Of a DNA stretch of 64,000 nucleotides, positions 11,301-54,615 are shown in pieces. Source of the stretch: Trichoplax sp. H2 (lineage: Eukaryota). Location of the stretch: assembly GCA_003344405.1 (NCBI GenBank), contig NOWV01000115.1, positions 1 to 64,000 of the forward strand, given 5' to 3'. The position numbers and the translations under genes were made by a program. The number at the start of each line of letters is the position of its first letter. Position 1 is the first letter of the stretch. A model generated the notes under the pieces. It was not told the origin of the DNA. It saw only the letters and a list, made by a program, of their open reading frames with translations, and ran no database searches.

Positions 11301-13106
11301 CAAAAGCTTAATGGATAACAGCGATTTAATCTAAAATAGTTAGTTGAAGTTTTTAGTGATATGAGCATCCACTTAAGCTGTTACAGATTGATAGTTTTGT
11401 AAATTGATCGTATAGATTTACGATATTGCCCTAAGATTGTGTTATTCTTTCAAATTTGCATGATGTTAAATTAGGGTTAAATCAGCTTTTATCTCTTTAA
11501 AGTTTAGTGATTTTAAGAAATAAATTACAGCAACAGTTGCTGACAATCTCGTTGTTGTACCTTGATTAACCATCACAACAATTGAATCGAATTTCGTCAG
11601 TGATATCATCAACTTTATAGTGGAGAGAATTTTTGTAGTTGCACTTCTATTACTTCTTAGTGAGAAATTAATTTTCTTGTTCAATTAAACAGATTTAATT
11701 TTTTTTAATGCTAGGAAATAAATATTTATTGCTATCCAGAAAACTTCAGTCTTGACAAGTTTTGTAGAGTGTCGAATCAATCCCTGGCAGAATCCTTAAA
11801 AACCTTAAGAACATTCAAATTTCACTTGGACAGCATGAGATGCAAATATCGTAACTGATTTTAAGAAGAATCATCTATTAACTTTATATCAATTATTAAT
11901 ACAATTATTGAAAAAATTATTGATTTGGCTCGGAATAAACCACTTTTATACCTATCATTGGAATTTCGTGCTATAGGTTAATAACTTGCCACTCCAGTTG
12001 ACAGATGATAAATAGCGTAAGAGAAGATTGGAGATAATCTAACGCTAAAGATTACATGTAAATTGAATACTTTATTGATGAAATTGCGAAATATTGTTTG
12101 GATGAGAAAAATTTACTGATTATTATCGTAAGAACTGATGAAAGCAAGCATTCAAGTAATAGAGCAATCGTTGGATCATTTTCACTACAAGAAATTAATC
12201 GCTTCTGCATTAGTCTTCTATAATATAATGACTTATTTATTATAGCTGACTATTAGTCATTTGTGTTGCGTCTATTTCATTCGGTAAAGAAAAAATAGAA
12301 GAAACTTTAACTCCATATTTAAAGATCGATATCAGTATTTTCACTGTATTTGATATTATCAGCAGAAGCCCATCTTCTCCATACACAATAACCTGCTTGG
12401 CACTTTCCAAGATACAAAGTTTATTTAGCAACCTAAGGATAAGGAAGATAATTTTTTTTTACATTTTAGAGCTATAAGGAGATAACTTGAAAAAAATTGA
12501 TTTTGTCTATTTATTTTGGCTGTTATTTTTTATCCGCCATTAGTAGATTTCTATTTTTCAAGATATTCAGCCGAGGCCATTGTACTAACAAGAATTAATT
12601 GGATTTGATACCCTTCAGAAAAGGTGTTAACTTTCTAGTAAGCAACTAAAATATACAATAAAATTAATTAGAGTCTTCAATTGTCGAATGTTAAAAGAAA
12701 CGTCCTCGGTGGTCCTGTATAGATAAAAGTTTAATGCGTATAATGAATTAAGAACCATAAGATTGTACTGGGCTCTATTGCACCTTTAACCTATTTAGAA
12801 TCTTACAGCCTTTTACATATCCATTTTATCAAAATACAGTATATCAAGCTAACTTAGGCTCATTACCGTATTTCGTCAATAAACTGTATTGAAAATTCTT
12901 TACTTGAAACAAGCAGTGCAATCAGTCTTGATCATTACGAATTTGACGTATTAAAATATTTCATGATATACGACTAATCACTACTTTAAAAAGGAATTTA
13001 TCCAATTAAGTGCTACTATATCAATATATTTATGAACTTTATCTCTAAGTGTAAAGGTCAGTGTCAATTATACTGGTAACCTGCTACTGCTGCTTCGAAA
13101 ACCGTT

Positions 13107-16972: not shown

Positions 16973-19138
16973 TTAATAAATTTCTACGGTCTTATCATTT
17001 TCTTTTTTATTGGATAGTAATTGTAAATTAGAGTGGAGAGTTGAGGCATTCTTACGCATTTGATTAGCATCAGTAACATAATTTAGATTATCATACACTT
17101 TTGCTATATTATCGTATGCATCAGCTACAGTCGGATGATTTTCATCGTACAGTTGGATAAAGGCATTAAGAGACTCTTGAAACATAGATAGGGCATCAGG
17201 ATAGTTTAATTGCTGATAATAAGATTGCCCAAGGTTATGATAAGACTTGGCAACATCTAGATGAATGTTTTCGTAAATTTCTAATCTCATGTTTAAAGAT
17301 TTCTTATATGCTGATACCGCGTTACTATATTTATGTTGCGAATAATATACGTTGCCAATCTCATGATAGGAATCGGCAACATCCAAGTTACAATTACTCA
17401 AGATTTCTAATCTAATTGATAGAGACTTATGATGTAAAGATAAAGCCTTATTGTACTTTAGTTGGCTTCTGTAGACAGAACCAAGTTTATAATAAGATTT
17501 TGCCACAGCGCTACTAGCATTGCCCATGATGGCTAATCTTATGCTAAGTGATTTTTCTAACATTCCTATCGCGTCATTGTTTTTACCCTGGATGTGATAA
17601 ATTGTTCCGATTTCGTAATATAAGCTTGCCGCATCTAAATTATCACTACCTCGTAAGTCCAACAGTATATCTAGGGATTTTTGAAATCTTAATTTTGCAA
17701 GATCATATTGTTCGAGCACACAGTAGATATTACCAAGAGAACGATAAATAGCTGCTACATGTATATTTTTCATACCAAGAACGTCTAATTTAATTTCTAA
17801 CGCTTTTTGATATAATGATAGGGCATCATTATGTTTACCTTGCTTGGTGAGTATATTTCCAATTTCATTGTATGAAGCAGCAACATCCAAGGTATTGCTT
17901 CCTAAATCCGCTAACTTAATACTTAGACATTGCTGATGCATTTTTAAGGCATCGTTGTATCTTTGTTGCTTCATATAGATACTTCCAATTGCGTGATAAG
18001 AATCGGCAGCATGTAAATTATTATCATCCAACAATTTCAAAATAATATTAAGACATTTTTGATGCAGGGTTAGAGCATCATGTTGCTGATTATTAAGGTG
18101 AAAGATATTACCAAGGCAATAGTATGATGCTGCAATGTCTAAGTGATCATCTCCTAATATATCTAGTCGAATTTTCAATGATTTTTCGTGCATTGATAAA
18201 GAATTTTTATATTGACCTTGTATACCGTAGATAATTCCAATTTCGTGGTAAGAGGATGCTACATCTAAATGACTATTACCGACTATTTCCAATCTAGTTT
18301 CGAGGGATGTATTGTGTAATGCAAGAGCATCATTAATTTTACCCTGCCTCCAGTAGACGGCTCCCATTTCATGATACGAGTTAGCAACGGGTAAGCTTGC
18401 ATTGTCTAACAAACACAATTTCATGTTGAGAGATTTTTGATGCATTACTAAAGCATCGATGTATTGACGCTGTAAGCAGTAAATACTACCAAGTCGATGA
18501 TACGATGACGCAAGACGTAAATTAGCAGTATCTTCGAATAAATTCAATCTAATAGTTAAAGATTTGTTATAGAAGGCTAGAGCATTTTGATGCTTACATT
18601 TTTTCTTATATACATCTCCAATATTATCATAAGTATCACTAATATCAATATGGTTATGCGGTAAAATAAGTAACTTAATATCTAATGATAGATTAAAATA
18701 ATCAAATGCTTCTTGAAGGCTATTTTTCATAAAACTGATTTTTCCTTTTGCATCAAAGCAATTCGCAGTCCTGACACGATCATCCAGCTTGCTAGCTAAA
18801 ACTTCAGAACATAGAATATTCTCATTAGCTTGATCATATAAACCTTGTTCATGATATGTACTAGCAATTTGAAGGCCGATATCACATTGAAGTTCGTCTC
18901 GTTCATCAACAGCATCCATAAATGTATTTAACATATCATAGCTTCGTTGAAAATGGATTCTAGCTTTCTGGTAACAACCCTTTTCGAATAAATTATGAGC
19001 CGAAGTTAGAACTGATAGAATATCGTCCATTGCATTTTTACCGTTGAAGAAACTTCGCGTTGAACTGGATTGAATATGTTGAATTTTACGATTACCAACA
19101 TGTGGATACTTTGATGACAGGCTCACAATATCACCCAT
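16973..19138 (-). CDS. Intronless TPR protein, 721 aa, with ~14 repeats of 42-aa period (kinesin-light-chain/NPHP3-like)
   Basis: Repeated consensus HLDVAxSYHEIGxxYxxQxxYxDALxxHQKSLxIRLEILG throughout the ORF. Confidence 0.93.
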   Translation of the reverse strand: MGDIVSLSSKYPHVGNRKIQHIQSSSTRSFFNGKNAMDDILSVLTSAHNLFEKGCYQKARIHFQRSYDMLNTFMDAVDERDELQCDIGLQIASTYHEQGLYDQANENILCSEVLASKLDDRVRTANCFDAKGKISFMKNSLQEAFDYFNLSLDIKLLILPHNHIDISDTYDNIGDVYKKKCKHQNALAFYNKSLTIRLNLFEDTANLRLASSYHRLGSIYCLQRQYIDALVMHQKSLNMKLCLLDNASLPVANSYHEMGAVYWRQGKINDALALHNTSLETRLEIVGNSHLDVASSYHEIGIIYGIQGQYKNSLSMHEKSLKIRLDILGDDHLDIAASYYCLGNIFHLNNQQHDALTLHQKCLNIILKLLDDNNLHAADSYHAIGSIYMKQQRYNDALKMHQQCLSIKLADLGSNTLDVAASYNEIGNILTKQGKHNDALSLYQKALEIKLDVLGMKNIHVAAIYRSLGNIYCVLEQYDLAKLRFQKSLDILLDLRGSDNLDAASLYYEIGTIYHIQGKNNDAIGMLEKSLSIRLAIMGNASSAVAKSYYKLGSVYRSQLKYNKALSLHHKSLSIRLEILSNCNLDVADSYHEIGNVYYSQHKYSNAVSAYKKSLNMRLEIYENIHLDVAKSYHNLGQSYYQQLNYPDALSMFQESLNAFIQLYDENHPTVADAYDNIAKVYDNLNYVTDANQMRKNASTLHSNLQLLSNKKENDKTVEIY

Positions 19139-22100
19139 TTTTAGCAGTAGAAACAGCGTCGTAAAGGCACAGTTAAAGAAAAAAGCGAGAAGAAAAAATC
19201 AGAAAAGACTGAGCACTGCAAAAGTTTACAAATTCATTCTAGCATCGTATGACATCCAACTACCAAGCTTTGGAAAGGTAATAAATTATTTATTTTAATA
19301 TTGTGGCTAGTAGTTACAAAAATATAAGTTAGAAATTTTAGTATTGTAAATTATTCGTTCACTCATTTAAAATAAAGCATCCAGGGCGGAAAGCTGATGG
19401 TATTAATGCTACAGTAATGTCCTTAGATATTCAGCATCTGAAATCTCTGTATTTGTTATCATATCATCATTACTCTGGACAATGACAGTATTGGTAGTAT
19501 GAACATGGAGAAGAATATAAAATGAAGACAATAATTGTTTATTATAATTTCTTTTTTTTCTGAGCATGGGAATGATTACTTTTGTAATATAGCTATTGAC
19601 ACATATTAAAAATGCGAATTATTCTTTAATTTTTAATTATCGGAAATGCATTATGAAAGATTGTCTTTGAAAAGAATCAAAACAATATCCGAATATTTAT
19701 ATTTTTATCTCTGTGATTTATTTAAGACGATCGACATTTGTATAAAAAAGAAAAGGAGAAATATACAGCTATAATAAACAACTTGAAGAACAAAAACGAT
19801 CTACTTCATAAGATTGATAATTTATTTACCTAAGCGCTTGATTGCTCATTGCTCGACTATGGATTTAAAATCACTAATAGAATCTATGTTCGTTATACTT
19901 GGCATTCTGTATGGACGTACACTTTTTACTTTATAATTACAGGAATCCTTATTGTCAGGAATTGATTTTATTTCCTACATACTTCATGTGACCTTCTATT
20001 CATTAAATATTATATAATTTAACGAATAATAAATTAAACTAATTTTCAGGATAGATTTGCTCCGGCTATACTAAACAACACCGCCAGTATAGACAATTTT
20101 ATACTTTATAGTATAATGGACTGGAATCTATTTGTAATTTATACTTAATTAATTGATTGACGGATTGATAAATTGAAATTGGTTTAAGTTTATTGAAGTA
20201 AATCAATGCCTTTGTTAAATCTTGCCTTTGATTTCATTTATCATACAATTCTAGTAGTTTACCAGATAATAAAAGTATTTTAAGATATTTCATATTAAAA
20301 AATTCATATATTTACTTTCTTTGTTAACTATATTGGATGTCGAAATTGCAACATCTGACTAGCACACTCTTCAACGATAAATCTGGCAATTCATGTAATA
20401 GTGTCTTGTACGAGTAAACTGCTTCAGACTCTTGAGGAACAAATTTTTATTTGCTGAACAAAAGGAAAAAGAAACCAAAAATATTAGAATAGAAGAGAAT
20501 AAAGGTTCAGCTCGTAAAATTTGGAAGGAGAAATCTGAGGACGCAAAATGTACTTAGAATTAGTGCATTGCTAATAACTCAACTATGAAAAGGATTGTGC
20601 CGAACGCGAGCACTTTACTTTCATTTCTAACGAAATACCCTCTCCCTATAAAATCTGAAAATTAACCGTACTAGTACCGTATAGTATGGATTTTACTGAA
20701 GTAAATTAGAGTCCTATATAATTATAAAATGTCCTATATTCAATTTCATGATATAGCGAATTTAATTTCTATACATATATACTAGAAAGTTAGGGTATAA
20801 TTACAAGCGCCAAAGCAGAAAGACCAACAGGCAGGTTTACTTTCAGCTATAGCCACTCTGTTAACAGGCTAATAATATGTAGCCTTCGAATGCCTCATTA
20901 CGTATTAAATATCACTTTTCTGATTCATTATTCTACAGAATATAAAGCAATTAAAATAATAATTGGCTTATGTCATCATGCAATGATTAGAATTGAATAA
21001 AACGCTGTATGCAGTTTCCATTATTACATGAGCAATTTGACTTCCTGATAAAGAAGCCCTTGTTCTACGTACTGATTTATGAATACTGCGAGGAGCAATA
21101 GTCTGTAGTGTTTAATTCGTGGGCAACAAATAAAATGATTCCACGCTAATGCTATGCAATATGTAGTTATAACCATAGGCTATATTATATTCGTCCACTG
21201 TGGTACATTCGCAGTTATCATAGAAAGGACATATCTACCGTACGCAGAATAAGATTGTGTTATTATGCTATAATTTAATTAGCTGTTACTTTAGCTAAAG
21301 AAATCGTGATATTTACATAACTGATATAGACTGTCAATACCGAGTCAATTGCTAGCAAATCGATCGATGATAAAGCCTAAATATATTCAATCGATTATAT
21401 TTTAAATTTTTAATTATTATAGGTTTCAATTCTTTTTGAATAGCCGTTTTCGTTTGCTAACTTATAACCTATTCATTTAATACTTTCATATATCATATGT
21501 ATGGACAATCCTTTTTTCAAATACTGCATTGATGATTGATGGTGTAAAAATATGAAGTCTACTATCTGTGATTCCACCTAATTAGTGCGGTATAAGTATA
21601 TATCTAATTGCGCAATGTAATTCACGATTACATTATCCGACACTGTAATTATGCATATTACTATATATCCAAATTGATCGATTAATAATTATATAATTGT
21701 AATGTGAGTCTTTTAATTAGATAAAGAGAGTAGGAGTAGAAATAGTTTTCAATCGGAAGAGTGAATAGAAGAAGAAGTAGAGAAGTTTCCAATCAAAATG
21801 GAAGTAGGAATTAAAATATACAGCGTCTCTCTCTATTGTTCTTCATTTTGGCATGAATTTCGCTTAAATTTGTCTCCTATGCTAGTCTAAAATAGTATGA
21901 ACCTTTAATACAGTTGCTAGTATTAGTTTAAATGGCGATGCATAACAGATCATATGTTAATTAGGCCTTGCTTAGCTATACAATAATTGTACTATACGCC
22001 GTTTGTATAAAATAGACGTTTGTAGCTCAACCTCTAAATCAGCTTAGGATTAATGTTATAGAATTCTATAAAAATAATTCAAGTAATACCATAAACATAG

Positions 22101-24705: not shown

Positions 24706-26250
24706 TTACTTACTTAATGATACTGACGGAAACAATTTTGGTTTGCGGCTTGATTTGCTATCGCTTCGAGGTGGCAATATATTAGCTTTATTGAAAATGC
24801 TAGAATGTCGACGATTACTTGTTTCGCCAGAGACGATTCCTAATTGATGACGGATTTTGGAAATGTTTTCACGGGTAACCAAAAGTGACGAATGACAGTC
24901 TCCTAAAATATCACGCTTAATTTCCGCGGCTTTCTCGCACATTTCCAATGCATCTTTCAACCTGCCTTGCATATAGTAAATAGATCCAATGCAATGATAT
25001 GAAACCGCTACTTCGAGAGCATGTTGGCCCAATAATTTTATTCTAATATCTAAAGCCGATTGATGAGATGATAAAGCAATGTCACAGTTATTTTGTTTCA
25101 AGTAAACATTTCCAATTTCGTGATAGCTGTCAGCAACTTGTAAATTCTTTTCACCTAATAGGTTTATACGCGTATTTAATGATTTATCAAACATCTCTAT
25201 TGCACTTTCATAATTTCGTAAAGAGTAATAAATTTTGCCAATTTCATGGCATGAATGAGCAACATCTAAGCTGTTCTTGCCCAATAAATCGATTCTGATC
25301 TTTAATGACTTCCTATGCATTAACAGTGCATCCTTATATTTACGCTGGCAATGAAGCACATTGCCAGTTTCAAAATAGGCTTGTGCTACTTCTAAATTAT
25401 CCTTGCCTTGGATTTGCTGGGCGAGATTAAGTGATTTCTGATGCATGGTTAAAGCGTTGTCAAAATTTTCTTGTTTTAAATAAACGTTTCCTATACAATG
25501 ATAGGAATCAGCAACAGGTAAATTGCTTGTGCCTAAAATTTCAACTTTAATATTCAATGATTTATGATACATGGCAAGTGCATTGTCATAGCGTTGCTGA
25601 GAGTAGAAAATATTGCCTATGTTATGATAGGATGCAGCAACGTATAAGTTGCTGTTACCTAGTACTTCTAACCGTATACTTAAAGCTTCTTGAAAAAGCG
25701 ATAAAGAAGTCTGAAAATCATCTTGTAAGTGATAAATTTCACCAATGTTTTCATAGCAATCAGCTACTTCTAAATTATTTTCTCCTAACATTTCCAGCTT
25801 CAGTTCTAATGATCTTTTGTAATCTTTCAATGCTTTAGTATACATGGCCGTCATTTTCTTCATTTTGCCTCGACAATCGTAACATTTTGCTAATCGCACT
25901 TTATCACTTAGTTTACGAGCTAATTTTTCAGCTTGATTACAAAATTCCGCCGCTTGTGCATGACTATGTTGTTCACAATATGAGATTGAAATATCGAGAT
26001 AGATATCACATTGTGCTTCGTCTGCTTCAATGGTAATCTGATAGGAACCAACTATGACATCAAGTGCTTCTGTATAAGTTGATCTTGCTTGCTCGTAATA
26101 GCCTTGTTGAAATTGGCGTCGACCAGCTAGGCGTAACGATTCCACTTTAGTAATAACTTTGCTACTATTAGCAACAGGATCGACGGTGGCTATCTTAGTT
26201 TGACTGTTAGAAAGAGATGGTTTAAGATATTGACTATACTCGCCTCCCAT
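24706..26250 (-). CDS. Intronless TPR protein, 514 aa, with ~8 42-aa repeats; tandem paralog of 16973-19138
   Basis: Same repeat consensus. Shared N-terminal block: QCDIYLDISISYCEQ...KLSDKVRLAKCYDCRG vs QCDIGLQIASTYHEQ...KLDDRVRTANCFDAKG. Confidence 0.93.
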   Translation of the reverse strand: MGGEYSQYLKPSLSNSQTKIATVDPVANSSKVITKVESLRLAGRRQFQQGYYEQARSTYTEALDVIVGSYQITIEADEAQCDIYLDISISYCEQHSHAQAAEFCNQAEKLARKLSDKVRLAKCYDCRGKMKKMTAMYTKALKDYKRSLELKLEMLGENNLEVADCYENIGEIYHLQDDFQTSLSLFQEALSIRLEVLGNSNLYVAASYHNIGNIFYSQQRYDNALAMYHKSLNIKVEILGTSNLPVADSYHCIGNVYLKQENFDNALTMHQKSLNLAQQIQGKDNLEVAQAYFETGNVLHCQRKYKDALLMHRKSLKIRIDLLGKNSLDVAHSCHEIGKIYYSLRNYESAIEMFDKSLNTRINLLGEKNLQVADSYHEIGNVYLKQNNCDIALSSHQSALDIRIKLLGQHALEVAVSYHCIGSIYYMQGRLKDALEMCEKAAEIKRDILGDCHSSLLVTRENISKIRHQLGIVSGETSNRRHSSIFNKANILPPRSDSKSSRKPKLFPSVSLSK

Positions 26251-29200
26251 AGTAATAGATTAAAGAGTAATAGTGATTTAATCAAGGATAAATTTAGTAA
26301 TGACTCAGCGATATACTCTCTCGTCAATTTCCTTGGAAAAGTGTCGTTCAATGTAAGTTACCGCTATAGCTATATAATATTGCAAGCGGCTTTATTACTA
26401 CTACTCATATTGATTAGATAAATAACGTTACTAAGAAAATTTGTTAGTTATCCTTCTGGAAAAGAGGTCACGGGTTATTTAGCCTATTTACTCTGTTGAT
26501 TGAGAAGCAAACTCTTTTTGTCATTACTCTTACTGAGACAGCAACAATAATTGGATGCCGCAGGTGTTACCGACGACCATTGTTCCACCGGGAATAGGAC
26601 ATAATATTAATGAAAAGGAACTATAGTTAGTTTATCGTCATTCAATAGGGTCTCTAACGTATCGAGAATGATTTATATGGCAAAATCGCTTATTTTGATA
26701 TTCAACAAGGTTATAGTGATAGACTAAGTTCGCAGTGATGGATAGGTTGAATTTTCGGCAACATATCGTTCTTTAATCATCACTTGGACCATGTTTGTTG
26801 TTGGTCTATTTCACGACAAAGTGATGATAGTAAAATACATGACCTATGGGTCTATGAGAATTCTTATTTACTTTAAGAACACGATTTAAACAACGGTATG
26901 CTTAATATAAGTTACAATGTCATGTTGTGTACTTTTTATTTCAAGTAATGACTTTTAAAAAATTCTTATTTACTCAAAGTGCATAAAAAATAATCCAATA
27001 ATAACTGCATCGTTACGGTTAGCTGGTAATAAGGCGCCAAAAAGCATCTAGATTGAATGCTATTTCTTGATTTATAACATTATCTTCAGGTGTTCATTTA
27101 ATAGTATACATTAAAATTAGACTAATTACATTGTTTGATCTAATTTTCGTACCAGAAATAAGAAATAGATTAATTCATTGATCAAATGATATAGATTTTA
27201 TTATCTATTAAGTTAGGTTACAATGAGTCAGTTAGTTAGAAGATACATCTCAAAGCCTACTTCTACTCTTTATCATAGTCGAAAAGTGCAAAGTATCTTT
27301 AGTTTTAGATTAATGGATAATGATTTTCACTGCAGTAAAAAATAAGAAGTACCATAGGACACGAAAGTGGTCTCATGACTGCGTTAAAATTTTAAAAGTT
27401 TGCATACCAAGTACTCATTATCGATCATTAAGCATCGCTATAGTTAGAACTCTATATTTTTGAGCTTAGAAGGAAGAGCTTGCTGTAGGTAAGACTGCAT
27501 AGTTAGGATAGTTTTTTCGGCAATGACAGCGAAATCAAGTGATGTCAAAGCAGACATAACGCACCTTATCGTCCATTTTCATATAATTAATATATAAATA
27601 AGAACAACTTGCGATAAATCAACTTAAAGTTAATCGGAGAAACATTTGCCTTTTAAGAGCTACAGTATCGAATCCTTCCCAACTAATATTAGTCATCAAT
27701 CATTGACAGCCATTGGTCTACTCTTGGCTTGGAATATAATATAAATAGTTCATACTAAAGCGGTCAATACGGACAACTGCTATGATCATATGAAAGCAAT
27801 GCTCTTACCTAGCGGTTGATAAATCTTCAGTTTTATTGTTCTTCAATGGTATGTCTTAATTATAATTTGTAGGTATGCCATTTCTGCTGTATCTCTGTAT
27901 TGTTTGGCATATTATGGAGGATAAATAATAGCTTTAGTAATGGATTCTCCTTTAAATTGTATTTATGAATAATTCATTATTTTATACCCTCAATTGTGTT
28001 TTAGGAATAACTTTTAGAATCTTAATTGCTCAATGGTGGACAACCATTAATGCAATCTTGTTATGACTTTTAATTCGGTCCTAACATCCTGCTACCTATT
28101 GAACTGTTCTATAAGATTTGATACATCTGCTAATAGAAAAGTTGATGACGATTCCATGGAGCCAATTTGAAGCGATGACGTAATTTCTCTATCCTTAATT
28201 GATAATTATAATATACTGCATAATACACACGGAAGTGGGATTTTATGTTTTGGTCAGGATGTCTGAATTGGGTGCATTTCCCCAAAAAGGGTGTATTGAT
28301 AGTTTACGACAATATGAATGAGAGAATACGACCTTACCACGCTTAATGACATGTTTACCATTAATATTGCTAGTCTGATGGAAATTAGGACTATTGAAGT
28401 ATGAAGAGTCACTGGTAATAGTAGAATTTAAAATGCTCTAGTTTACTTCTGTATTGTTAAAATCTGTCTCACTAAATAATTATATACATAAATAAATACG
28501 AATTTAGATCGATGACTGAAGATAATACCTAGTTCAAACTACCACGAAACGGAATATCGTGCTTTGCATAAATGGTCATGTATCATGCTAATAACTGTGC
28601 TACATAAACCCTATAAGCAGACTAGGCACACTTAAAATCTACTGTACTGTAGGCGGTTTAGGAAATCCTTCAATTTAGTACACGGTAACGTAGTACTGTA
28701 TATACATCATTAATTGCTCATGGGCCCTATGCCTACACCATCATCATCATGGTCCGTCCCTGTTAATAAAGATAATCTATTAGAGACAACTTGCCAACAT
28801 GAGTTACTGGTACTTATCAAAATTCTGATGCATACAGAATTAATAATGATAACTATTTGCTCTATTCATCACAACAGCTAAAATTGATTAAAAAAACCCG
28901 TCGACTTAGATTGCTCTCTCTATATTTTAATGCTAACTCGCATAATCGATATGTTTTGGTAAATTCTACAACATTGATCATAGTCCTTAACGAAAATGAT
29001 TTAAATCAATATTCTATACTGTTATCCACTCAAATTTTCAGCGGCAAACTAGTTCTATGAAGTTGAGGGTCAGGAATTGTGATCGAGAGTATCGCGACAG
29101 GTGAGTATTGCGGCATTTTGTTTTAAGATTGGCCTCTGTGTATTGTATACAGATACGTTCAGTTAAAATAACATTACTGGTATATCATGAGAAGGGGCAA

Positions 29201-30719: not shown

Positions 30720-31330
30720 ATGAAGTACAGTAAAGTACCGTACAGTAAAACAACTGTCTACAGTATGTGTACTCTAGTCTAGTACAGTACTGTACTGTAG
30801 GAACGAGTTCGTCGTGACTAGGGACGATGACGAGTCGCTATTGGGTCCATTCACGGTCATGATACTGTACCGTACCGTGTCACACCGTACCGTTCCGTAC
30901 CGTACCGTGCATCTCTCCGTGGCGAATAAACAAACACTCAATTCTTCGACAAGGGGCTTGGATTGTCTTGCACAAACTGGTACGGAGAAGTCAACCTTGA
31001 TACAATCGTTCTACGTCCTGCTACGTTGTTTATAAAGAGTGACGACCACATGAACGTCACCCATTCCCTACAGTACAGTACGCCGTCCCGTACAGTGTCT
31101 CGTCTACAGTACAATAGACTGTACACATGGCTTGATTTCTGTACTGTACACTACAGTCATTTTCCAAGTACATACGGATATTGCAGCGAGCGTACCATGG
31201 ATTTGTAAGAGAAATGCGCATTCTAGTCTATGGTCGTATAGTACAATCGCGTCAAAACAATTTACAGTACAATATAGTACTGTACAGTACATTCTAAGGT
31301 ACAGACGTACAGTACTGTACACTTCACTCT
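30720..31330. repeat. Island of TAC(A/T/C)GTA pentamer chains immediately upstream of the CUB-like gene (putative promoter region)
   Basis: About 19 TACNGTA occurrences by manual count in ~600 bp, e.g. agtacagtactgtactgtag and gatactgtaccgtaccgtg. The region is locally GC-richer and ends ~220 bp before the ATG at 31548. Confidence 0.85.
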
Positions 31331-34500: not shown

Positions 34501-37500
34501 TATATTTTTTTGTTATTTGGTACTGCTATTGATACAGCTTTCATGAAGAAAGTAATGACAAAAATAAAACTTTTATATTTGGATATTTTTTCAGCTTTAT
34601 ATTTCACCTTACTTACCATCGTGTTCTTTTCTATTTATAATTGTAGGTCAAATTGTGAACATTTCTCAAAGTAAGTCGACATATTCAGTAGTGGTATATT
34701 TATTTGCAATTGAAAGTTATTTCGACAATCAGCTAGAATAATTCACGTTTTACTGACATTGTCTAATGATGCTTTCGTAGCGTCAGAAATTGATCGGTCT
34801 TTTTATCCATTGTTAGCATATATGCTTTTCTTATAATCGATAACGTCTGTCGTCAGAATAAGTAACATTAATTATTCTATTTTAAATTTCAATTGTTCAA
34901 GTTTAATTGAAATTAGTACCGTATCAACTACAATAGCATAACTGTTAGTTTAGACTTGAGTAATGACTCTGTAGGCTTAACCTATACTATAATTAAATTG
35001 GTTGCCTTGTAGATCTAATCTAATAGTTTCTCGATACGTTTGTAATACTTATTTTTAATAATGTGTATTAGCATTTTATATGCCGATAATAATTTTAATA
35101 GTAGAAACATTAGAATATTTGTTAGTATTTAACGGCTTCATGATTTACTCTTATTGGGTTGATTGAGTAAAGGCAAGCTTGGAGAGACTGTAAACTGGTT
35201 ATTATTTAGTTAAAGTAATAACGTTATAGTTTATATAAATCACTGTCACAACCCATATACTGTGAAAGTATGGAAAGAATTTTCTGTAGTTGCCATCGGT
35301 GCCTTTCTAAATGACAATCCAGTATAATTCGAAAATTTTCCTATGATAAATAGCTCTTCTTGTAGCAGTATGACGTAGTTTAGTTAACTATTGGGCTGTT
35401 ATATATAAACTTTTACTCTTCTGCGATTTATTTTGTCGATTGCAATGGTTAGCGATAATAACTTCATCCAGATTTTCTGTTCGTTTACTTCTAAATTACT
35501 GTACTGTACTTCCGTTAAAGTCTAGTGGATTGAGATGCGAGAGATTAAGCGTAGTTATGTTAATTTAAGGTAACTTACGAGGAACGTGAGTACGCTTATG
35601 CGGACTTATCTAACCTTATGGATTATATCTGTGAAATATTAGTACTGTTTTCAACGTGGATACGCTAAATATGAAATAGTAAATGTAAATTTTTTAGTGA
35701 AGCATTTCACAACTCCTCATAAATTAGGTATTTTATTTAATTAAATTCTATCTCAATTCTGGTTGTACTTTACACTTTACACGATACATGCTGCCATAAC
35801 TTCAGGAAGAGATTGTCGATAATTTTAAATGATTGTTAAATGATGATGCAGATGTGGAGTGGAAAGGTCATGTTACTGTAGGAGTAATAATCGGATACAT
35901 TTACTAATTTGATCAATAGAATGCAATATGATTGGTCCGTTAACTAATTATTACCACAAAGATTCTGATTTGAGTGGAATGATCGAATTGGATGGCAGTC
36001 GTTTCGTTAAACCGTGGTGTTTCTGGTATTTTCAGACAGGGTAAGTAGTATTATCGATTTCTGGTAGCAAAAATTCAAGTAGCCAATTTGTCATGTAATT
36101 GAACGACGGTCTAATATCTGCATATATTGTTTTCAAAAAATAATGAGTATTTTCTGATTGTTCTTGCGCATTTATTAAACCAGGGAAAATATTATGCTGA
36201 CTTTTTACTTGCGTGATCTGAAGTTACCGTCCAATTCATCGTTGGTAATTGCATCGCAAACATCATCTAAATACGTTGTCTATAATAGCTTAAGTAACGG
36301 AATTTCAGAGCCCGTGGAGTCGTTATTTACCAACAAATTTTACGTTAAATTTTACAACAATAACACACATAAATATTACAGCCCTAAATTCAAGCTTCAT
36401 TTTGGTCCTTATTTCGGCAAGTTTCTTAATATTTCTAAATTTACTTACGCTATTAAATTAGGGTGATACTTTTTCAGATCTTATATTATACTATATTGAT
36501 AGAGTGCAAATCTATAGTAGATGTACTTTCGAACTGATGCCTATTACTATAACATTTTTAGATATATAAACTTTATTATTTTTCATTTTGGTGGTTGCTA
36601 TTATTTAATTGTAGGTGATACTTGCTCGCATGCAACAATATTCCAATATTCATCTGGGCGGATTAATAAGGGATATGGTTCTAATTTCCCTTACTGCGGC
36701 TGGACGATCAAGGTGCAGCCAAGTTACGGAATTACAGTCAAGTTTAATAAATCTTCAATGGTCGGCTTTCCTTCGAATACATTTGTTAAATTTGGTGTAA
36801 CCATCCCTATCGGTAAATTTGATCGCAATGGATTGAATTAATACCAAATATATAATTCATTTTATAGTTACATAAATTCTGTAAATGCGTATTTGTAAGG
36901 CTAATCTCATTCGATGCAAATTATGCAATTACGAGTTTAACATGATGGTGCAATCAATATTGCAAGTCTTTGTAGATACCGTAGCTTATAAAGGTTTAAG
37001 CTTAATTCTGAAAATTATTTCATGTTAAAGATGTTTAATTAGTGTGGCTATTATTCCTTACAGATCTAAAGAAGTACGTCAATTATTTTGGCTCTGGTGA
37101 TAGCATGCCTTATAACTTGAGTACGATATCTAACGTCGTTTGGATAGCTATTACGAAATCGAACGGCATGCCGCCGCTAAGGAATACTACTCTTGCCTTC
37201 AGCTGGTTTTCAAAGCCTAAAACAAGTAAGTCAATCATTATTGATGCAGTTGAATTCTATTGACGTATGTCTGCGTTATAAAGAAAATCTTATAGGAAGA
37301 TATATAATACCAGTTATGTTTGCTTAGGTTGGAGATTATAATGCATTTTACCTAGAGTATTATTTTTTCATTTCTGACAGATATGACAAGTTATCCATCG
37401 TATATGGATCATCATGCAAATTTTGGTAAGTTGCAAAGAAAATGCATAAAACTGATATAATTACATACTGATGTTGTTAATAAAATGTATCGGCGCAATG

Positions 37501-38075
37501 ATTTTAGATCACCCCACTACTGTGGCAAATTGGGGTACTGTTATGAGTACCACAACTCCCAAGAACAACAATCATTCTACAACATACTTTAGTTGGACTG
37601 TTTCTTTCGGATTATGTTTCGCTTCTTTCTTTCTTGTTATAACCGTCGTTTCATGGTATATTCGACAGCGGCGACTACAAGCTTTACAACAAAGTTCTAT
37701 ATCTTCGCGTCGTTTTTCTCGTGATCCGGTGTCTATGTCACGTCCTCCATCGACTGTAAATGAAGTAACAGGTAATTACGATCTATACAATATTTATCAC
37801 TAAAACCTAAAGTATACCATTAATTTATTCAGCTATACTATTGATAATGGTAACAGGTTAAAATAAATGGATGTAATAACTTATTTTATAATCTTTGTTG
37901 TATAGTTCCGCCGTCATATGAGGATTGCGTTCAAGCTAGAGGTGGCGCTTCAAAAGATCAGATAACTGGTGATGAGGCCTTGCCTGATTATACAAACGTT
38001 TCAAATAATAATGAATCTACGGAACCTCCTTCGCCTACTACGACGAATGAAGGCAATAGTAATGAACTTGTATGA
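31548..38075 (+). CDS. Type I single-pass membrane protein: signal peptide, two divergent CUB-like domains, Thr-rich stalk, TM helix, and a cytoplasmic tail with PPSY and LPDY motifs (9 coding exons)
   Basis: Phase-consistent exons: 31548-31605 (MELFLRICLLLVLGVAGIS), 34647-34670 (CQIVNISQ), 35962-36040 (SGMIELDG..PWCFWYFQT), 36184-36416, 36615-36812 (TCSHATIFQYSSGRI..YCGWTIKVQPSYGITVKF), 37064-37225 (STISNVVWIAI), 37381-37425, 37508-37771 (TM WTVSFGLCFASFFLVITVVSWYI-RQRR), 37906-38075 (VPPSYEDC..LPDYT..ELV*). CxWxI...I.v.F and S.SN.vwi are CUB-like patterns. The first two exons are less certain than the rest. Confidence 0.78.
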
Positions 38076-39409
38076 TAATTTGCTACAAAAAATGAGGATA
38101 ATGAAATACTTCTGCTAGGAATCTACTTTTTTAAATTATGTATTAATATTATTAGAATAATTGGATTGTGAACTATACAAACTTCATTCGAGTAGCTATG
38201 AACTTGATGAGACATACTAATAAGGGTATACTGTTCAACTTATACTGCTTGCATTATGTCTATTGTATTATGACGAAAACTGCCGACATTCTTGTCCGAG
38301 ATAATTTATACAATTTAAAACATTCGAGTTTAAAATGATTATTATTGTAGTGCGTGATGCCGTTGCTCGGTTTACTGTAATGTATAAAATCACTATCACT
38401 CATCGTTATTTAATATTTTAAGAATCTACTATTAACCGTATTTTAATATAGCCAAATCTGAAATATTAACTGGTACAGCGAATTTCTTTACTAGCTGCAT
38501 ATGGTTATTGTAATGTATAATGGTCGATCAAACTCTTTTATTTCTTAATTCATCTAGATGACAAAATACTTAGAATGCGTCCCTTATGATATTTATTCTA
38601 GTCCAGCTTATTATCATAGTTTTACTTCTTACGGCGACTAGTCTTCTGTCATTATGAATGAAATTCGAAATTTCATTTACTTTTATCTTTATGAAGCGAT
38701 TCAACTTCTAATTTATACAATTATAGATATTATGATTATCAATTAAAGATAGTAAATACGAATAAATTGACTACTATGAGACTTATTGTAAATGAATGTA
38801 CATGTTATTGAGATTACTCGTATAGAGCATAACGAAATTAGAGATAGTTAATGATTACTCATGAAACTGACTAGCCTAGTCACGATGGATTAGATGCTGA
38901 TTAAGTAATTATTAGCAGAATATGAAATGTTGTAACTATATTATCAGATACTACCATTACGTAATTTACACGTGACTTTCAATCACGTTGGTTACTTTTA
39001 TGGTTAATTCTATATTGGTCTTTGGCTTCATTAGAAATTACGGTAGTTTGCGTCCCTATGAGTGGAGATTTACGGGATTTATTTACAATAGCATAAGGCA
39101 GGTTAGCGCTTAGACCAACTGTATGATAACTATTTGACAAGTTGTTCTGTATAAGAACGTATAAAATAAGTGTAAATTAAATTAATTTATGTCACATTTA
39201 GCTTTTTTATGTTGTAGTATTAGTCATCTACAATTGCTATGTTAACAGGCATATTTACATTGCTAAACTCAAACCGACGCCCTAAAGTATTAAGCGTAAT
39301 CACTGTTGATTGATTTATAAGGAATACTCCGCTAGTTTATTACTGCAATCAGTATGATAGCGAATCTCCTATCTATAATTTTTGTACCGCTATTCATAGT
39401 GCATATAGG

Positions 39410-42400
39410 ATGAGGTGAAAATCATTCTGATACTACTAGCATAAACGGCAATTTAGGAAATGTACAGTACAGTATATAGCAAGTTAGGCAAGTATGAAAA
39501 GGTTATTTTTATGCTTGAGAAATCACTATATATTCCGTTATCGGTCTCTGATTATAATTATGCCTATAACGTAGTACTATACCCATCAGACAGTGGCAAT
39601 GATCTAGTCTACATATCAGAGCAAGCATAAAGAAGCCTTTTATATGTTTGTTTGGCAAACTTTTCAAGATTGGATCCTTAGTCTTTAGCCACAGGAGCTG
39701 TATACGCGTATCTGTAACAAAGCTGACAGCATGAAGCAATTCATGTATTCGAGAAATTACTCAAAATTCGATTATCAGCCCATGATAACAATCATCGTGA
39801 TATTACTGTTTCGTACGGAAATCGAGGTTGTACATGTATCTAAAGCTCAGGGTAATTATAGAAACTATTTGTCTAATTACGAAATCACTCAAAATTCTAT
39901 TATTAGTCCTTGGTCATAATCATTGTCATGTTGCTGATTCATAGTTTATAGTATCTTTGGCATTCCCTGTCATGATACAAGCTTGTATAATAATAAAGCT
40001 ATTTGTATACCTGAGAAATTACTTGACATTTGATTGTCAGTCCATCATCATAACCATTTCGTTCTTGCCCGTTCTTGTAACAATCTAGGAGATACATGTA
40101 CTGTTCAAGGCAGGCATGAAGAGGTTATTTCTACCTACAAAATCCTTAAAATTTGACTATCAGTCCTTGATCGCAATCATCCTGATATTGCTTCTTCTAA
40201 TAGCTATGTAGGATTTGTTTATAAGGGCGAAGGGGGATGCAAAATGAGGCTGTTTCAGGGTATGAGAAGTTACTTAAATTCGATTATCAATCTTTAGTCA
40301 CAATCATTCTCATACCGTTATATTCTATGTCAATATGAAATTGTATATTCTGATCAAGGTAAGCATGCAGAAGCCTTTTGTATTCACAAGAAATGACATA
40401 AAGTTCTACTGTCTATGCTTGCATCCCATGACTGTATTAAATCGGTATACCATCATAAGAGCAGTTATGAAGAGGTTATTTCTATGTGTAATTCACTCAA
40501 ATGCAATCGTCGGTCCTAGAGCACAATCATCCTAATGTTGCCAAGTCATATAACAATATTGCTGTGGACTATCTTAAGTAAGAAAAATGTGAAGAAGCTA
40601 TTTGTAGTACTAAGGAGTCACTCAAATTCTACTCGGACTCGGATCGTAAACATCCCCTTGTTGCTTGATCTCAACGTAGAGACGGGGTATGGACATTTAA
40701 GCAAGGAAGAACAGTCTACTTCTATGTATGGAAAGCTACTTCAAATTGAAATGTCGGTCCTTGGTCACAACTATCCTTATGTTGCTGGGTCATCATATAA
40801 CAGTATTGATGCAGCTTATTAAGCGATCTAGGTAGATATGAATAGGCTATTTCTATGCATAAGAATCACTCACATTTTCAATCATACGCATACATGAGGA
40901 AGCTATCTGTATGTACATGAAGTCACTCAAAATCCGTTTTCCATCCATGGTCATAATCATCCTGATATTGTTGCATTGTATAATACCATGGAAATTATTT
41001 ACTGCGATCATGGCAGGTATATCCATTTATCCTATTTCTATGCTAAAGAAATCACTCATAATTTGGCTGTCAGTCCATGATTTCAATCATCCTTTTAGGG
41101 AATACCTATAGAAATTAGGGTATGCATAAACGGGATATTTTTACGTATGTATAGAAAGCAACCAAAATTTCAATTGTCAGCCCGGGATCAAAATCATTCA
41201 GTTTACTACAACATATAGCAAGATTAATCTTGCCTATACTATTCAGAATATGCATGAACATTATTGAGCAAGCAATTCGTAAGTATGAGAAGTCATTTCA
41301 ATTCGATTGTCAGTTTTTGTTCACATTTATTCTCACATTGCTGCATAATATTACGACATTGGTACGGTGTACATTTGATTAGGAAAAGCCTAAAAAGACC
41401 ATTCCCATATACGAGAAGTCGATTAAGATTCGATCAGTCCTTAGCCACAATTAAACGATGTTTCTGCATCTTAGAGCCGAATCGGAGTTATATATCAGTA
41501 TCGGGGCAAGCATGAAGAGGTAATATCTCTGCATGAGAAATCATTCAAAATTCAGTTGTCAGTCCTTGATCATAGTCATACTGATACCACCGCATCATAT
41601 AGCAACATTGATATAGTATATGACAATTAGACAAAATATGAAAAAACTACTTTGATTGATGAAATATCTTTCAAAATTTTATTATCAGTCCTTAATTATG
41701 ATTTCTAATATTGCTGCATCACCTAACAATATTGGTGTAGCCTGTAATAATTGTAATTAATCAGAGTAAATGTGAAAGGCCATTTTGATGCGTAAGATAT
41801 TGCTTAAAATTTGCTTATTAGGTTGTGATGGCAAATTTTCCCAAGTTGCCACCTCATATAATAATAATATAGGAAAAGTGTACCATAATTTTGGCAAATA
41901 TGAAAAGCCAGCATCTATACTCAAGAAACCTTTCAAAATTCGATTATTAGCTCCTTATCACAATTAATCCCATGTTACGGCATGACATAGCAACATTGCT
42001 TCTGCTTATAATGATCAGTGTAAGTATAAAGAAGCAATTTCTATGGTTAAGAAGCCACTCAAATTCAATTGTTAGTCCTTGATTTCCTCCATCCCGATGT
42101 TGCTACATCATACAAAAATCTAGAAAAATATAGACTGAAACTAGGATAGGATATAAAGAGACTATTTACATATATCGGAGATCACTTAAAATTCAATTAA
42201 TGTTCTTTGGTCACAGTCATCATTTCGATGTCATACTATCATATAGCAATATTGGATTTGCCTACAATGGCTTAGGCAAACATGAAGAAGCAAAGTGTAT
42301 GCTCAAGAAGTCACTAAAATTTCGGTGGTTAATCTGTTGTCATTATCATACCAACTTTAGTGCATCTATAGTGAAATGTGAAGATAATATAATTTTTATA
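39410..42400 (+). pseudogene. Heavily decayed TPR-array pseudogene (~20+ repeats of ~126 bp)
   Basis: Recurrent remnants such as KYEKVIFMLEKSL, EAIHVFEKLLKIRLSAHDNNHRDI, SMYGKLLQIEMSVLGHNYPYVAGSSYN, SYNNNIGKVYHNFGKYEK and SYSNIGFAYNGLGKHEEAKCMLKKSL. These are broken by many stops and frameshifts. Confidence 0.9.
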
Positions 42401-45400: not shown

Positions 45401-46787
45401 GGAGCGAAAATGAAAAGCTGATTTTTCAACGTCAAAAGGAATAAAATTCTCTTCAAACTGTCTCCGATATTGGAGATTTGGAATAATTCAATGCAATTTT
45501 TTGTTATGAGTATTCCATAAGATATTATTAAATCTATAAAGTATCTTCAAAAGACTGGAGGTTCTAACCTATTGGACCGACTGATTATAATTTAAATCGA
45601 TAAATCAGCTTTCGTAAATCAAACTGATTACTTGGATGCCTCGTGGAATTGACACTATCAATAACGATTTGGCAAACAAATTTTGTGGATATTTCTTGCA
45701 ACATACCAGTGCGTATAAATACCAAACTGTTAAAAGGATCAAACAAGGTTATAGGTCTTTATTTATTTATTAAGGATAGGTTGATTTCCATCCACTAACT
45801 TGTTAATCTCATCAATAGCAATCTCTAATCGTTGATTGGCTAAAAGTTATATCCTATAAAATCGATTTTAACAGCCAAATTAATTCAATAAAGAAGAAAT
45901 AGATTAATACTTATTCTTGGTCTATCCGTAAGAAGTGAATGGAAGCTGTGCTTACGTAGTGATTTCTAAATATTGAAGAGTTTATTTACAATTAATGCAA
46001 ACAGCCCCCAAATTTATTATTACTGGTTGTGTAATTGTAGAGGATTTAATGTTGTGAATAGAATTGAGAAAGTTGATTTCTGTTGAAGAATAAGTGATGT
46101 AAGATATTTTTTATTTTAACTTCACGTCCCTGTATTCTGTTTCTTGCTTAGTCTACATTACAATTTTGTTAGATAAAGTACAGTAATCGTTATTTATTAT
46201 TCTTCCATATCAACAGCGTTAGCAAATCCTCACTTTGGATCCTCAATTTTGCACCTTGCGAAATTGACTAAACTTTATCGGTCGTAATTATTATTAAACT
46301 ATAGGAAATTGCTCCTCAAGAATTTAGTTAATTTATTTATAATAAAATAGGAGTAGATAATAGAAGAGTTTTATCGTATTCATTTTTCGAATGCAAACCA
46401 TTTCTCTTTAATTAAGCAACTCTTCTATCTTGTTGAAATTATTTGATCATTGTCATCATTGATAAATTTATAATCTATTAACGACTAGATTTCGTTAGAA
46501 TTATTTCATTCTATCTATTGAATTTGTGTATCTGTTTAGCAATTACCAGGATTGATTTGCCAGCATCACATCAGATTACCGTTATGATATTGGTGTATGG
46601 TCCATGTTGTCAATTTTAAGCCATTTAGAGGATCATCGTTGCCAGCTCGATTATTGTAAAAGTTTATAATTGTATCATTTATCTTCTTTTGTGATTGTGA
46701 ATTCACTTAAACTACAACAGCAATATTGAGATTAATTTAGGGGGTATAGTATTATTGTCGTTATCAATATCAAAAACAAGATTGAAT

Positions 46788-47867
46788 ATGACTCTAAACT
46801 GGAGCAACACTGAACTCAAGCTGCAAATTCATTCTAATAATGAAACTACCTTAACAACAGATTTACCTACGATATTTTCTATCCCGCCATCAACCATATT
46901 GACTGTTAATTGTGTAATGGTAGTGTTGATGTTATTAAGCTTAATATGTAACCTACGTATCATCGACGTTTTAATACGTGATCGCCTTCGTCAACGACAT
47001 TATGATTACTTTATCATTAATATTACTTTATCGAATATTGTCTTGACCTTTGGTAATTTAATCTATTTTATCGTTTTATTAGTAACATTTCATCAACATT
47101 TTGGCATTACTACTTTGTTTTCATTTTGTAAATTTATCTTAGTAATACAGTTATTGCCTTATTCAGTTCATATGATTACATTGAGTTTAATTAGTTTTGC
47201 GCAACATCGCCGTTTACGCCATCCATATCGTAATCGAGTTTCGACTCAATTTATTACTTCTTATACGATACCGTTAATATGGATTATTAGCTTAACACTG
47301 GCAATGCCTATTTTGCCTCTATCTGATCCTAAAACATCATCGTGGTTAAAATATCATCAATATTATGGCTTTTATTGCTATATTACTACTTTTATACCGT
47401 CGTATCGGCGTATTTACTTCTCAATTTACGTTACTGTAGCCTTTATCCTACCAATTATTATGATTATCTATAGTGGTTTAGATGCGTTGTATATCTTCAA
47501 CAAAACAAGCATTACTATGCCTGTTCACTATCATAATTCTAATCATGAGCTAAATATGTCCTTAGATCGTTGTGATGGCCGTAAGCGTGAATATCTAAAA
47601 ATATGTAAAAAAATTATTGGACTGCCATTAATCTCTTGTTTAGCAGCTTGCCCACAGGCGTTTTCATTCTTTTATATGGCCTATACGACCCTACAAGATA
47701 CTAAATCTCCGACTGACCACCACCAAGTAACCAATCAAGGATTATACTTCTACATCAGCCAATTTATTATATTATTTAATTGTTACTATCATCCAGTCTA
47801 TTTCCTTTTGCACGATCAAAAACTACGTCGGCGTCTTTGTTGCCTTTGCTATTATCTTCGTCAATGA
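46788..47867 (+). CDS. Intronless class-A-like GPCR, ~359 aa from the first in-frame ATG (the ORF track starts at an upstream TTG, 46755)
   Basis: N-terminal NWS and NET glycosylation sites. TM1 SLICN, TM2 FIINITLSN, TM3 FCK..MITLSLIS, TM4 IWIISLTLAMP, ECL2 FYC, TM5 AFILP, TM6 ACPQ, TM7 YHPVYFLLHDQKLRRRLCCLC. Confidence 0.88.
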   Translation: MTLNWSNTELKLQIHSNNETTLTTDLPTIFSIPPSTILTVNCVMVVLMLLSLICNLRIIDVLIRDRLRQRHYDYFIINITLSNIVLTFGNLIYFIVLLVTFHQHFGITTLFSFCKFILVIQLLPYSVHMITLSLISFAQHRRLRHPYRNRVSTQFITSYTIPLIWIISLTLAMPILPLSDPKTSSWLKYHQYYGFYCYITTFIPSYRRIYFSIYVTVAFILPIIMIIYSGLDALYIFNKTSITMPVHYHNSNHELNMSLDRCDGRKREYLKICKKIIGLPLISCLAACPQAFSFFYMAYTTLQDTKSPTDHHQVTNQGLYFYISQFIILFNCYYHPVYFLLHDQKLRRRLCCLCYYLRQ

Positions 47868-52533: not shown

Positions 52534-54615
52534 GTTGGAGCGCTAAAGCAAGAGGATAATGACGTCAATCAGTGCTAAAATAATGGACAATTGCAAGAGA
52601 ACAACCAAGACAACTGGACAATACTGTTGATATCTTCTAATAGCTCTAATAAAGCATCCTTGGCGATAGTCTACTACAATCGAGCACCTAGAAGTGCAGA
52701 ATTTACCTCTTTTGCCTAAGTTGAAAAAGTGGCATCGAAAAAAAAGCTGGCAGATTGATGTGGTCCCAAACGGGTCCCAATAAGTTGCCCGCTGAGTACA
52801 GTGTACAGTACAGAACGCCTTACAGTATGTACTGTACTGTATCACAGGTCCCGTGACCAGAACGATGATCACATGACTCAGTGTGCAGTACTGAACACTT
52901 CTTGGTACGGTACTATGCACTGTACACTGTACTGTACACTGTACTGAGTAACAGTAGTCTACTGTATTTTTGCTCATATTGAAAGCTATAGAAAGCGCTA
53001 ACGCTATTACCGAGATGAGCCTTTACTATTGCACACTATTCACACGTTGATCTTATACTTGATGTTGAGGCATCGTCCATAGGCAGATCAATCCATGGAC
53101 CACTCAATCCCTATTTTTCATGATACTGCCCACACCAGGCAGAGCAGAGACGGCCAATAGGCCACCCTTCCACTGTAAACTACTTTATTTCATATTTCGC
53201 CCTACGAAACGCGATATAATATCACTTTTCAATCTACAAATTGCCCATCGCTGGCCAACACTCTACCGTTTTAATATGCCGTTGGAGGAAGTTGACGGTG
53301 TACAGTACACAGTCGAGCACAGTACTGTACAGTACTTACTTTGTACTGTACAACTGGACAATCACTCTTGGATGGACAGACATTTCCGACCTCATTGCGC
53401 CAAAATAGCATGTCAAACACTGGATTATGAAAGTACTTTAGTATGCAGATGGTCGATTTTGAATGGACTGATTTTTTCCAAATTAAGTAATATTACGCTC
53501 AATCTGATGATCTGTTTGTTTTACGGATTTACTAGCGTCTCTGTAGTTAGCTAATTATAGGATTGCTTGGACTGTTGAATTGCAAGCTTAGCAGAGCTTA
53601 ACAGCACTAGTTCTGTTCCGTCCTAGATCAGTATAGGTACTGTTTTGTACTGTACATAAGGGTGGTGAGAAAACAGAAGAAAGGTAGATCTTCACGTGTA
53701 AGCTAAGCTGCCGGGATCTCGCTTCGGTAGACTGAGAGCATACATAAAAACAGTCGCTATCATTACCGCTAACACTGTGACTAAGTTCTACTTGGAGACA
53801 ATTATATGAGATTGTCGACGCCATTAGAATTAGTGCCAGTGATTTAGTAAAGAGACGCGGAAGATCCATGCTAGGTAGCCATTTTAGCGATATTGATGGC
53901 CTCCTTGGTTAAGAAAAGTCCGTCTACCTGTCCAAGTCGCTACAGTATCTACTGTACAGTCCACTAAAATGTACAATACTGTACACTGTAGAGTCATGGA
54001 CTATTCAATAAGTCGTCTAATTTAGCAGCATTATTTTCGTCTCAGATATTTTATTTAAGGTATAAATGAAATTTATTGCTAGATATTGGTATAAGCTAGA
54101 GTATTCGCACATTCATTTTAGTGACATTTTTTTTCCAGTTCAAGTCAGTCTGTAGTCGAAATTAGAAGACGCTGTACACTCAGAGTACAGTACATACTGT
54201 ACGGACAGTACGGTAGAGTACTGTCGCCAAGTGGAACATGAATTGGTGTTTCGTATGAGTAACCGTGAGTGGAATGGAACCGTATAAAACCCATCGATCA
54301 TATGTCATCCATGGGTCACACGGTCAAGGCTCCCTCTCATCCCAGGGCATCGACTGGATCTTCTTTTGGTACTGTAGTCCTTGGTACAGTGTACAGTACA
54401 GAGTACTGTAATATGGCACTGTAGAGAGTTGGCTAAGTACTGTAATAGTTGGCCATGGATTGGAAATAGAGGTAGCCCCTTTTTGGGGTTTTACTACATG
54501 ACCAGTACAGCTTCAATGAAGCGTTTGAAGCACTAGAGTGCAATACTTGGCTGGGTGTTCTCCTCGGCCATAGCTCCTGGTTGACAGCTGCACCGTTGCC
54601 ATGAAAGCCTAGGAC
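52534..54615. promoter_or_regulatory. Divergent (head-to-head) promoter/5'UTR region shared by UBC9 and RINT1, containing several TAC(A/T/G)GTA clusters
   Basis: The start codons are ~2.1 kb apart on opposite strands. Motif clusters lie at ~52795-52970, 53299-53352, 53638-53656, 53941-53992, 54172-54225 and 54369-54443. Acceptor-like sites just before both ATGs suggest 5'UTR introns. Confidence 0.7.

Follow-up and report, generated by a model that had tools for sequence, protein, structure and literature searches.

A CAGTA-CAGTA insertion at a TA in a dead Trichoplax TPR gene exemplifies a recurrent TA-anchored mutation, probably left by transposase excision

The locus and its genes

The window analyzed here is a 64,000-nucleotide stretch of the Trichoplax sp. 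H2 genome (contig NOWV01000115.1, positions 1 to 64,000; C148:1-64000 in our numbering of the 94.9-Mb assembly of 1,128 contigs). It contains a dead TPR gene, whose stop-free frames reach 100 aa at most as against about 969 aa for the gene overall, and two concentrations of short TA-flanked units, hereinafter islands. The main features are:

39448..42355, plus strand: decayed TPR gene with 24 profile matches to a 126-bp (42-aa) unit and numerous stops and frameshifts
39463..39464, plus strand: predicted target TA, bases 2 and 3 of a Val codon GTA, in the context G-TA-T
39465..39474, plus strand: CAGTA-CAGTA insertion of two 5-bp units (a left shift to 39462-39471 is equally placeable)
30726..31319, no strand: island of mixed-orientation TACAG/TACTG/TACCG units, with 19 heptamers
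52804..54444 (52804-52966, 53301-53350 and 54186-54444), no strand: second island group, including TA-CAGTG-TA and TA-CACTG-TA units

Two intact single-exon TPR genes on the minus strand (16973-19198 and 24706-26259; Pfam TPR_12/TPR_10) belong to a subfamily more diverged than the dead gene. The window further codes for a rhodopsin-type GPCR (7tm_1) with a long glutamine-rich stretch (13080-14600, plus strand). The next long plus-strand ORF after the dead gene starts about 7 kb downstream (46701); the ORF at 46701-47867 is also GPCR-like, with no Pfam match. The first island lies upstream of a putative signal-peptide exon at 31547, which is unannotated and was read by eye. Inside this island, 30863-30910 is a degenerate TACCG array that runs in one direction only, unlike the mixed CAG/CTG units.

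A ten-base insertion in a decayed TPR repeat

Read directly, positions 39453-39492 are TTA GGA AAT GTA CAGTA CAGTA TAT AGC AAG TTA GGC AAG, and the insertion falls in the first of the 24 profile matches of the dead gene. A profile built from 188 intact 126-bp TPR units of the same genome gives SYNNIGNVYYNQGKHEEAISMYEKSLKIKLSVFGHNHPDVAK at the site; in these units codon 7 (Val) is GTA in 34 and codon 8 (Tyr) is TAT in 156, and CAGTA is found at codons 7-8 in only three. Deleting 39465-39474 yields LGNVYSKLGKYEKVIFMLEKSL, which is in register with the TPR repeat, and the best-matching intact unit is identical to the site without the 10 bp at 64 of 90 bases. The identical 10-bp insertion was called independently by a circular-profile Viterbi alignment. 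With the forward algorithm and three parameter sets, the posterior was 0.54-0.74 for the exact insertion and its equivalent shifts, and 0.76-0.92 for any single 10-bp insertion at the site. An earlier note, made from the letters of the window, had read these bases as CAGTA-CAGTA inserted after a TA of a decayed TPR repeat, with removal of the 10 bp restoring the register; both readings are confirmed by the 188-unit profile and the Viterbi call, and the objection that intact paralogs might already carry CAGTA here applies to only three of the 188 units.

Because the genome contains no close paralog of the dead gene (best DNA matches 63-79%), the empty ancestral state is reconstructed from the TPR family and not directly seen. 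Among four public runs, contigs of two cross the filled site without gaps (X1, 36170-40379, possibly the source sample of the assembly; X5, 39097-40648), and in these two, the runs readable at the site, no empty allele was seen. Contigs of the other two (X3 and X8) cross the site with gaps that are not placeable, and repeat contigs (80% likeness, 15 kb) swamp the indel table. A further 5-bp insertion in the dead gene, at 39942-39946, can be read as TA-GTT-TA, with the TA duplicated and neither CAG nor CTG.

The inserted motif is one that has been described before. According to the accessible text of Wang et al., 2010 (PMC2871265), ACAGT makes up 78% of the pentanucleotide repeats of Trichoplax adhaerens, lies in 54% of cases within 1 kb upstream of genes and was proposed as a transcription factor site; a microsatellite is there a perfect repeat of more than 12 bp. 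The perfect ACAGT run at our site (39462-39474, 13 bp) has the same motif and exceeds that length. The same text treats the motif as a microsatellite or possible transcription factor site and in its accessible part offers no proposal as to origin, whereas here it is found to be TA-anchored, mostly single and of mixed orientation.

TA-anchored heptamers across a genome sample

The ten bases at 39465-39474 are one example of many and not unique. We counted TA-NNN-TA heptamers in a 598-kb sample consisting of the window, two 100-kb blocks and 40 stretches near TPR genes, which is not a random one. TACAGTA/TACTGTA occurs 682 times against 182 expected (3.75x), an excess of about 500 or roughly 0.8 per kb, followed by TACCGTA/TACGGTA as a second enriched class (153 vs 60, 2.56x); the remaining 30 classes lie at 0.80-1.44x expectation. 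Enrichment needs TA on both sides, the next best left pair reaching 1.52 and the next best right pair 2.08. The longer TA-CAGTG-TA is likewise in excess (34 vs 8 expected). We also observed enrichment of TA-CGCG-TA (3.97x), TA-CCGG-TA, TA-CCCG-TA and TA-CGAG-TA (2.29x), which could be due to scars left by other elements or to a CpG effect.

Most arrays are single units (681 of 746). Adjacent pairs, 74 in all, comprise 47 in the same and 27 in opposite orientation (p=0.027 against 50:50), the latter being ordered CAG-CTG in 15 cases and CTG-CAG in 12. Islands account for 21.7 kb and 227 heptamers (about 10 per kb); the sequence beyond them carries 0.79 per kb where 0.30 would be expected, and long ORFs carry only 0.175 per kb.

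For the target site we pooled the 30 half-sites of 15 events (12 polarized and 3 unpolarized, partly chosen by eye). Position -1 is G in 15, A in 9, C in 6 and T in none, and position -2 is T in 20 of 30. The preference thus looks symmetric around TA, with G-TA-C favored and T-TA-A absent. The phase of maximal perfect runs gave no information, owing to chance extension and the G-TA-C context.

Five-base insertions as a recurrent mutational class

To polarize indels we compared 82 copies from six families of dispersed repeats, in total 33,647 aligned bases with 2,540 substitutions, and took as minority insertions those carried by at most one quarter of the copies. These number 25, 9, 4, 7, 7, 1 and 1 for lengths of 1 to 7 bp, with 5 longer. 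Five of the seven 5-bp insertions are exactly TA -> TA+CAGTA/CTGTA and the remaining two are one base off; the lone 7-bp insertion resembles TA-CAGTG-TA with one change. By chance the pattern is expected in 0.08% of random 5-mers and in 2.2% of tandem duplications, and the earlier note's worry that TA-anchored CAGTA/CTGTA might be no commoner than other insertions is answered by this comparison. One of the five exact events also fits a tandem duplication, and the other four have no adjacent template.

An unpolarized census of paralogs has 17 five-base rows among 179 indels, against 7, 9 and 9 for three, four and six bases, and includes four distinct exact events; a stricter version has four exact events in 13 rows. 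These censuses overlap and hence are not independent of each other. The 12,738 matched columns of 11 broken TPR regions contain 42 insertions, and four of these measure 5 or 10 bp: the 39465 site, one at L041 and two of another type. The L041 case is best read as TA -> TA+CAGTA against a codon string present in two of the 188 intact units, the profile placing it differently. Twenty more stretches near TPR genes added almost no broken units to this pseudogene set of about 101 units. No 5-bp deletion was seen among 36 copies of repeat A, which carry resident heptamers. A foldback-like set of modular inverted repeats (L181:1480-3290, up to 96% alike) has an extra CAGTA at a TA in one module.

The rate amounts to about one event per 510 substitutions. 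Given a decay target of 7 bases, the steady-state expectation is 0.28 intact heptamers per kb, and by simple arithmetic the observed excess outside islands, 0.49 per kb, is within twofold of it. We regard it as almost certain that a recurrent, genome-wide mutation TA -> TA-CAG-TA or TA-CTG-TA exists, and this supports the proposal, made from the 39465 site, that the motif originates in unconstrained DNA when bases are inserted after a TA.

Probable excision scars of a Tc1/mariner-type transposase

A symmetric target preference around TA is a feature of Tc1/mariner elements. We consider excision scars of this type the probable source of the TA-anchored 5-bp gains, the transposase itself being inferred. 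An element with CAG...CTG ends would enter a TA and duplicate it; its later excision would leave 3-nt overhangs, and end-joining would leave the two TAs separated by CAG or CTG. Each such scar would create new favored G-TA or TA-C half-sites and therefore might allow re-use of the site and stacking in either direction. Slippage may contribute some of the same-direction copies, and selection would purge units from coding DNA. Pile-up at promoters could come from a bias of insertion toward open chromatin, from retention as a putative protein-binding site, or from both.

The comparison with a known system is close. TACAGTA/TACTGTA is given as the canonical Sleeping Beauty footprint in the accessible part of PMC6943129, and such a footprint is described, there and in the accessible part of PMC8151067, as the TA target duplication plus the last three bases of the element, joined end to end. 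The Trichoplax product is the same 7 bp; it too has a TA at either end, is found in both orientations and comes about as a 5-bp gain at a single TA. The Trichoplax units differ in being fixed at very many natural sites, in stacking into arrays and in that an active or multi-copy donor was not found. The longer CAGTG class and the symmetric target also fit Tc1/mariner-type scars. Gain at a single ancestral TA with no adjacent template is found at the 39465 site and in four of the five exact polarized events, and the mixed orientation expected if either element end can remain is seen in 27 of 74 pairs. Against this reading, pairs of like orientation outnumber opposite ones (47 vs 27), and the order CAG-CTG versus CTG-CAG is not predicted by the preference at position -2. 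The main evidence against it, and the source of the oddity of the case, is the donor gap.

The search for a donor element

Family and pattern searches covered the whole genome, and a search for shared element ends covered about 1% of it. The family searches recovered three pogo-type loci, two DDE_3 loci and four Tc1-type DNA-binding domains; no young or multi-copy element, and no intact transposase with inverted ends, was found by the genome-wide searches, and no site still occupied by the element was observed. CAG/CCG-anchored inverted ends were absent at the transposase loci, save one (L143). A comparison of 4,216 starts in 1.02 Mb revealed no shared end of the TA|CAG or TA|CCG type; genome-wide, matches to a pogo-type end pattern numbered 67, against 64 in the control. 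Two exact pogo-type end matches were rejected, there being no matching inverted end within 3.4 kb. When TIRs were sought with TA-CAG/CCG as anchor, 17 pairs came back, and almost all were pentamer arrays.

The exception, L143, is a decayed Tc1 element; its flanks can be aligned with TA|CAG at the left and CTG|TA at the right, and 1,557 bp separate the two. Its arms score above 99.5% of the 1,500 null pairs, yet are the top pair out of 44 tried over eight loci, and its TA|CAG...CTG|TA ends are weakly supported as donor ends. It is a single locus, with a 97%-identical second copy of the right end, and is too decayed to have written scars in duplicates that are 95% identical. The second right-end copy (L185, compared with L143:2415) adjoins a repeat-A copy missing in L143, an apparent presence/absence insertion.

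The other candidates were set aside. A Tc1-type transposase gene (L063:1375-2521, minus strand; one GT-AG intron, identified by eye, and one TGA; best database relatives 53% identical) is single-copy and has no inverted ends. The pogo-type ORFs L060-L062 and L064 have no TIRs; L060, L061, L062 and L064 are intact single-copy pogo/CENP-B-like and DDE_3 ORFs and candidates for domesticated DNA-binding proteins. L144/L176 is a Tc1-type DNA-binding fragment in local duplications. An inverted repeat around a Tc1 fragment (L177), first read as TA-flanked TIRs, proved to be a deiodinase gene that was duplicated head-to-head long ago. This iodothyronine deiodinase duplication (L177:2300-7000; Pfam T4_deiodinase, E 2.6e-34) has an in-frame TGA that is likely selenocysteine, with a palindromic pentamer island at its center; one of its arms contains the Tc1 fragment. 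Also ruled out as the donor was repeat family A, roughly 550 bp long with TG...CA ends and, as judged by eye, target duplications of 5 bp.

A copy of repeat A stands in the window at 101-604 (minus strand) and is solo-LTR-like; a first look at the genome gave 676 candidates, the top copies being 95-97% alike. This high count contrasts with the transposon content of only 0.13% reported for Trichoplax in the accessible text of PMC2871265. The latter also lists 11 mariner/Tc1 matches, with TIRs absent around complete ORFs, and four transposase-like rows of the accessible supplement match L060, L061, L062 and L143 by eye.

Competing origins

The main rival, which we hold to be rather unlikely, is a host enzyme that writes the five bases at a TA with no resident element. 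A domesticated transposase that works on a minimal substrate is one form it could take; another is an addition primed by TA, whether templated, telomerase-like or repair-linked, possibly of two units per event. Such an enzyme would account for the missing young donor despite some 500 excess heptamers per 598 kb, and the intact single-copy pogo-type ORFs with no inverted ends (L060-L062) are present in the genome; the excess of same-orientation pairs and of isolated doublets (15 vs 3.3) likewise speaks for it. What weighs against it is the variety of products: CAG/CTG, CCG/CGG, CAGTG/CACTG and CGAG/CTCG between TAs resemble the ends of several elements and not one template. Moreover, the two-sided symmetric target is more readily understood as a staggered attack from two ends than as priming from one side.

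We find it quite improbable that the units are transcription factor or insulator sites built by substitution and then selected, with chance alignment in a decayed gene producing the doublet as an artefact. The 54% of ACAGT repeats lying within 1 kb upstream of genes (PMC2871265, accessible text) and the link of ACAGT and ACGG motifs to insulation drawn in the accessible part of a preprint (bioRxiv 10.1101/2024.11.14.623548) are what such a scheme would lead one to expect, and the exact-placement posterior of just 0.54-0.74 leaves room for an artefact; it is countered by clean 5-bp gains in dispersed repeats and dead genes and by the excess outside islands (0.79 vs 0.30 per kb). Selection may still account for the promoter position of the islands, which is compatible with excision scars.

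That chance substitutions started an ACAGT microsatellite which then grew by plain replication slippage is very improbable and, as the origin of first units, largely refuted: despite the one exact polarized event in five that is also a tandem duplication, the same-orientation excess, the one-directional TACCG array at 30863-30910 and a possible slipped second unit at 39465, it is opposed by the four events, and the reconstructed ancestral 39465 site, that have no adjacent template, by the preponderance of single units with TA needed on both sides, by the opposite pairs, and by the mere 2.2% of tandem duplications that produce the pattern, so that the possible role of slippage is as an amplifier.

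Transposase excision thus stays the preferred reading. The earlier note had suggested a transposon footprint as a fit; the 5-bp product agrees with that suggestion, whereas a young donor element was not found.

One scar or two

The doublet had been ascribed to two successive footprints or to one footprint plus slippage, and both routes stand with neither favored. Outside islands there are 15 isolated adjacent pairs, ten in the same and five in opposite orientation, against 3.3 expected from independent insertions. Slippage cannot produce opposite pairs, which points to re-use of sites. If independent scars split evenly between orientations, about half of the isolated same-direction doublets would be two scars and about half slippage or a two-unit event, on small numbers. 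For the doublet at 39465-39474, two scars and a scar plus slippage are about evenly matched.

Promoter islands and the meaning of the motif

The insertion had also been put forward as support for a mutational origin of the promoter islands. Origin by insertion stands, but the clustering at promoters is left unexplained: with about 10 heptamers per kb in islands against 0.79 outside, targeted insertion, selection or both are required beyond mutation alone. Two published motifs bear on the islands. The insulation preprint (bioRxiv 10.1101/2024.11.14.623548) pairs, in its accessible part, ACGG with ACAGT; TACCGTA/TACGGTA is the second enriched class here, and the TACCG array of the first island resembles its ACGG motif. 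A promoter-hub motif of placozoans was assigned to Mutator TIRs, called with EDTA, according to the accessible text of Kim et al., 2025 (PMC12221973); it is likewise short, promoter-associated and tied to a DNA transposon. In our sample the top inverted 'TIR' pairs are opposed pentamer arrays, and the published Mutator TIR assignment may be a by-product of such arrays. The motif was not found in the accessible part of PMC6067683, and a search of the open-access literature, subscription papers lying outside it, returned no proposal of a footprint origin for ACAGT.

Trichoplax mostly propagates by fission. A wider scenario, which we put forward tentatively as a possibility, is that the commonest specific 5-bp insertion of this genome is a transposase scar, produced at a steady pace until recently and at sites numbering tens of thousands, its writer being a very mobile low-copy element or a domesticated transposase missed by assemblies. 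Within that scenario, end-joining scars of body cells would be inherited as a consequence of fission; scars would draw further insertions and accumulate in the open chromatin of promoters, and in this way would have given rise to the ACAGT/ACGG promoter and insulator motif, the 'Mutator TIR' signal being in part opposed scar arrays.

The ACAGT promoter repeat was described in 2010, has gone unexplained from then on and was later linked to chromatin insulation. If transposase excision is its source, a genome reported as nearly transposon-free would keep a large record of cut-and-paste transposition, and a regulatory motif would have arisen from mutational scars.
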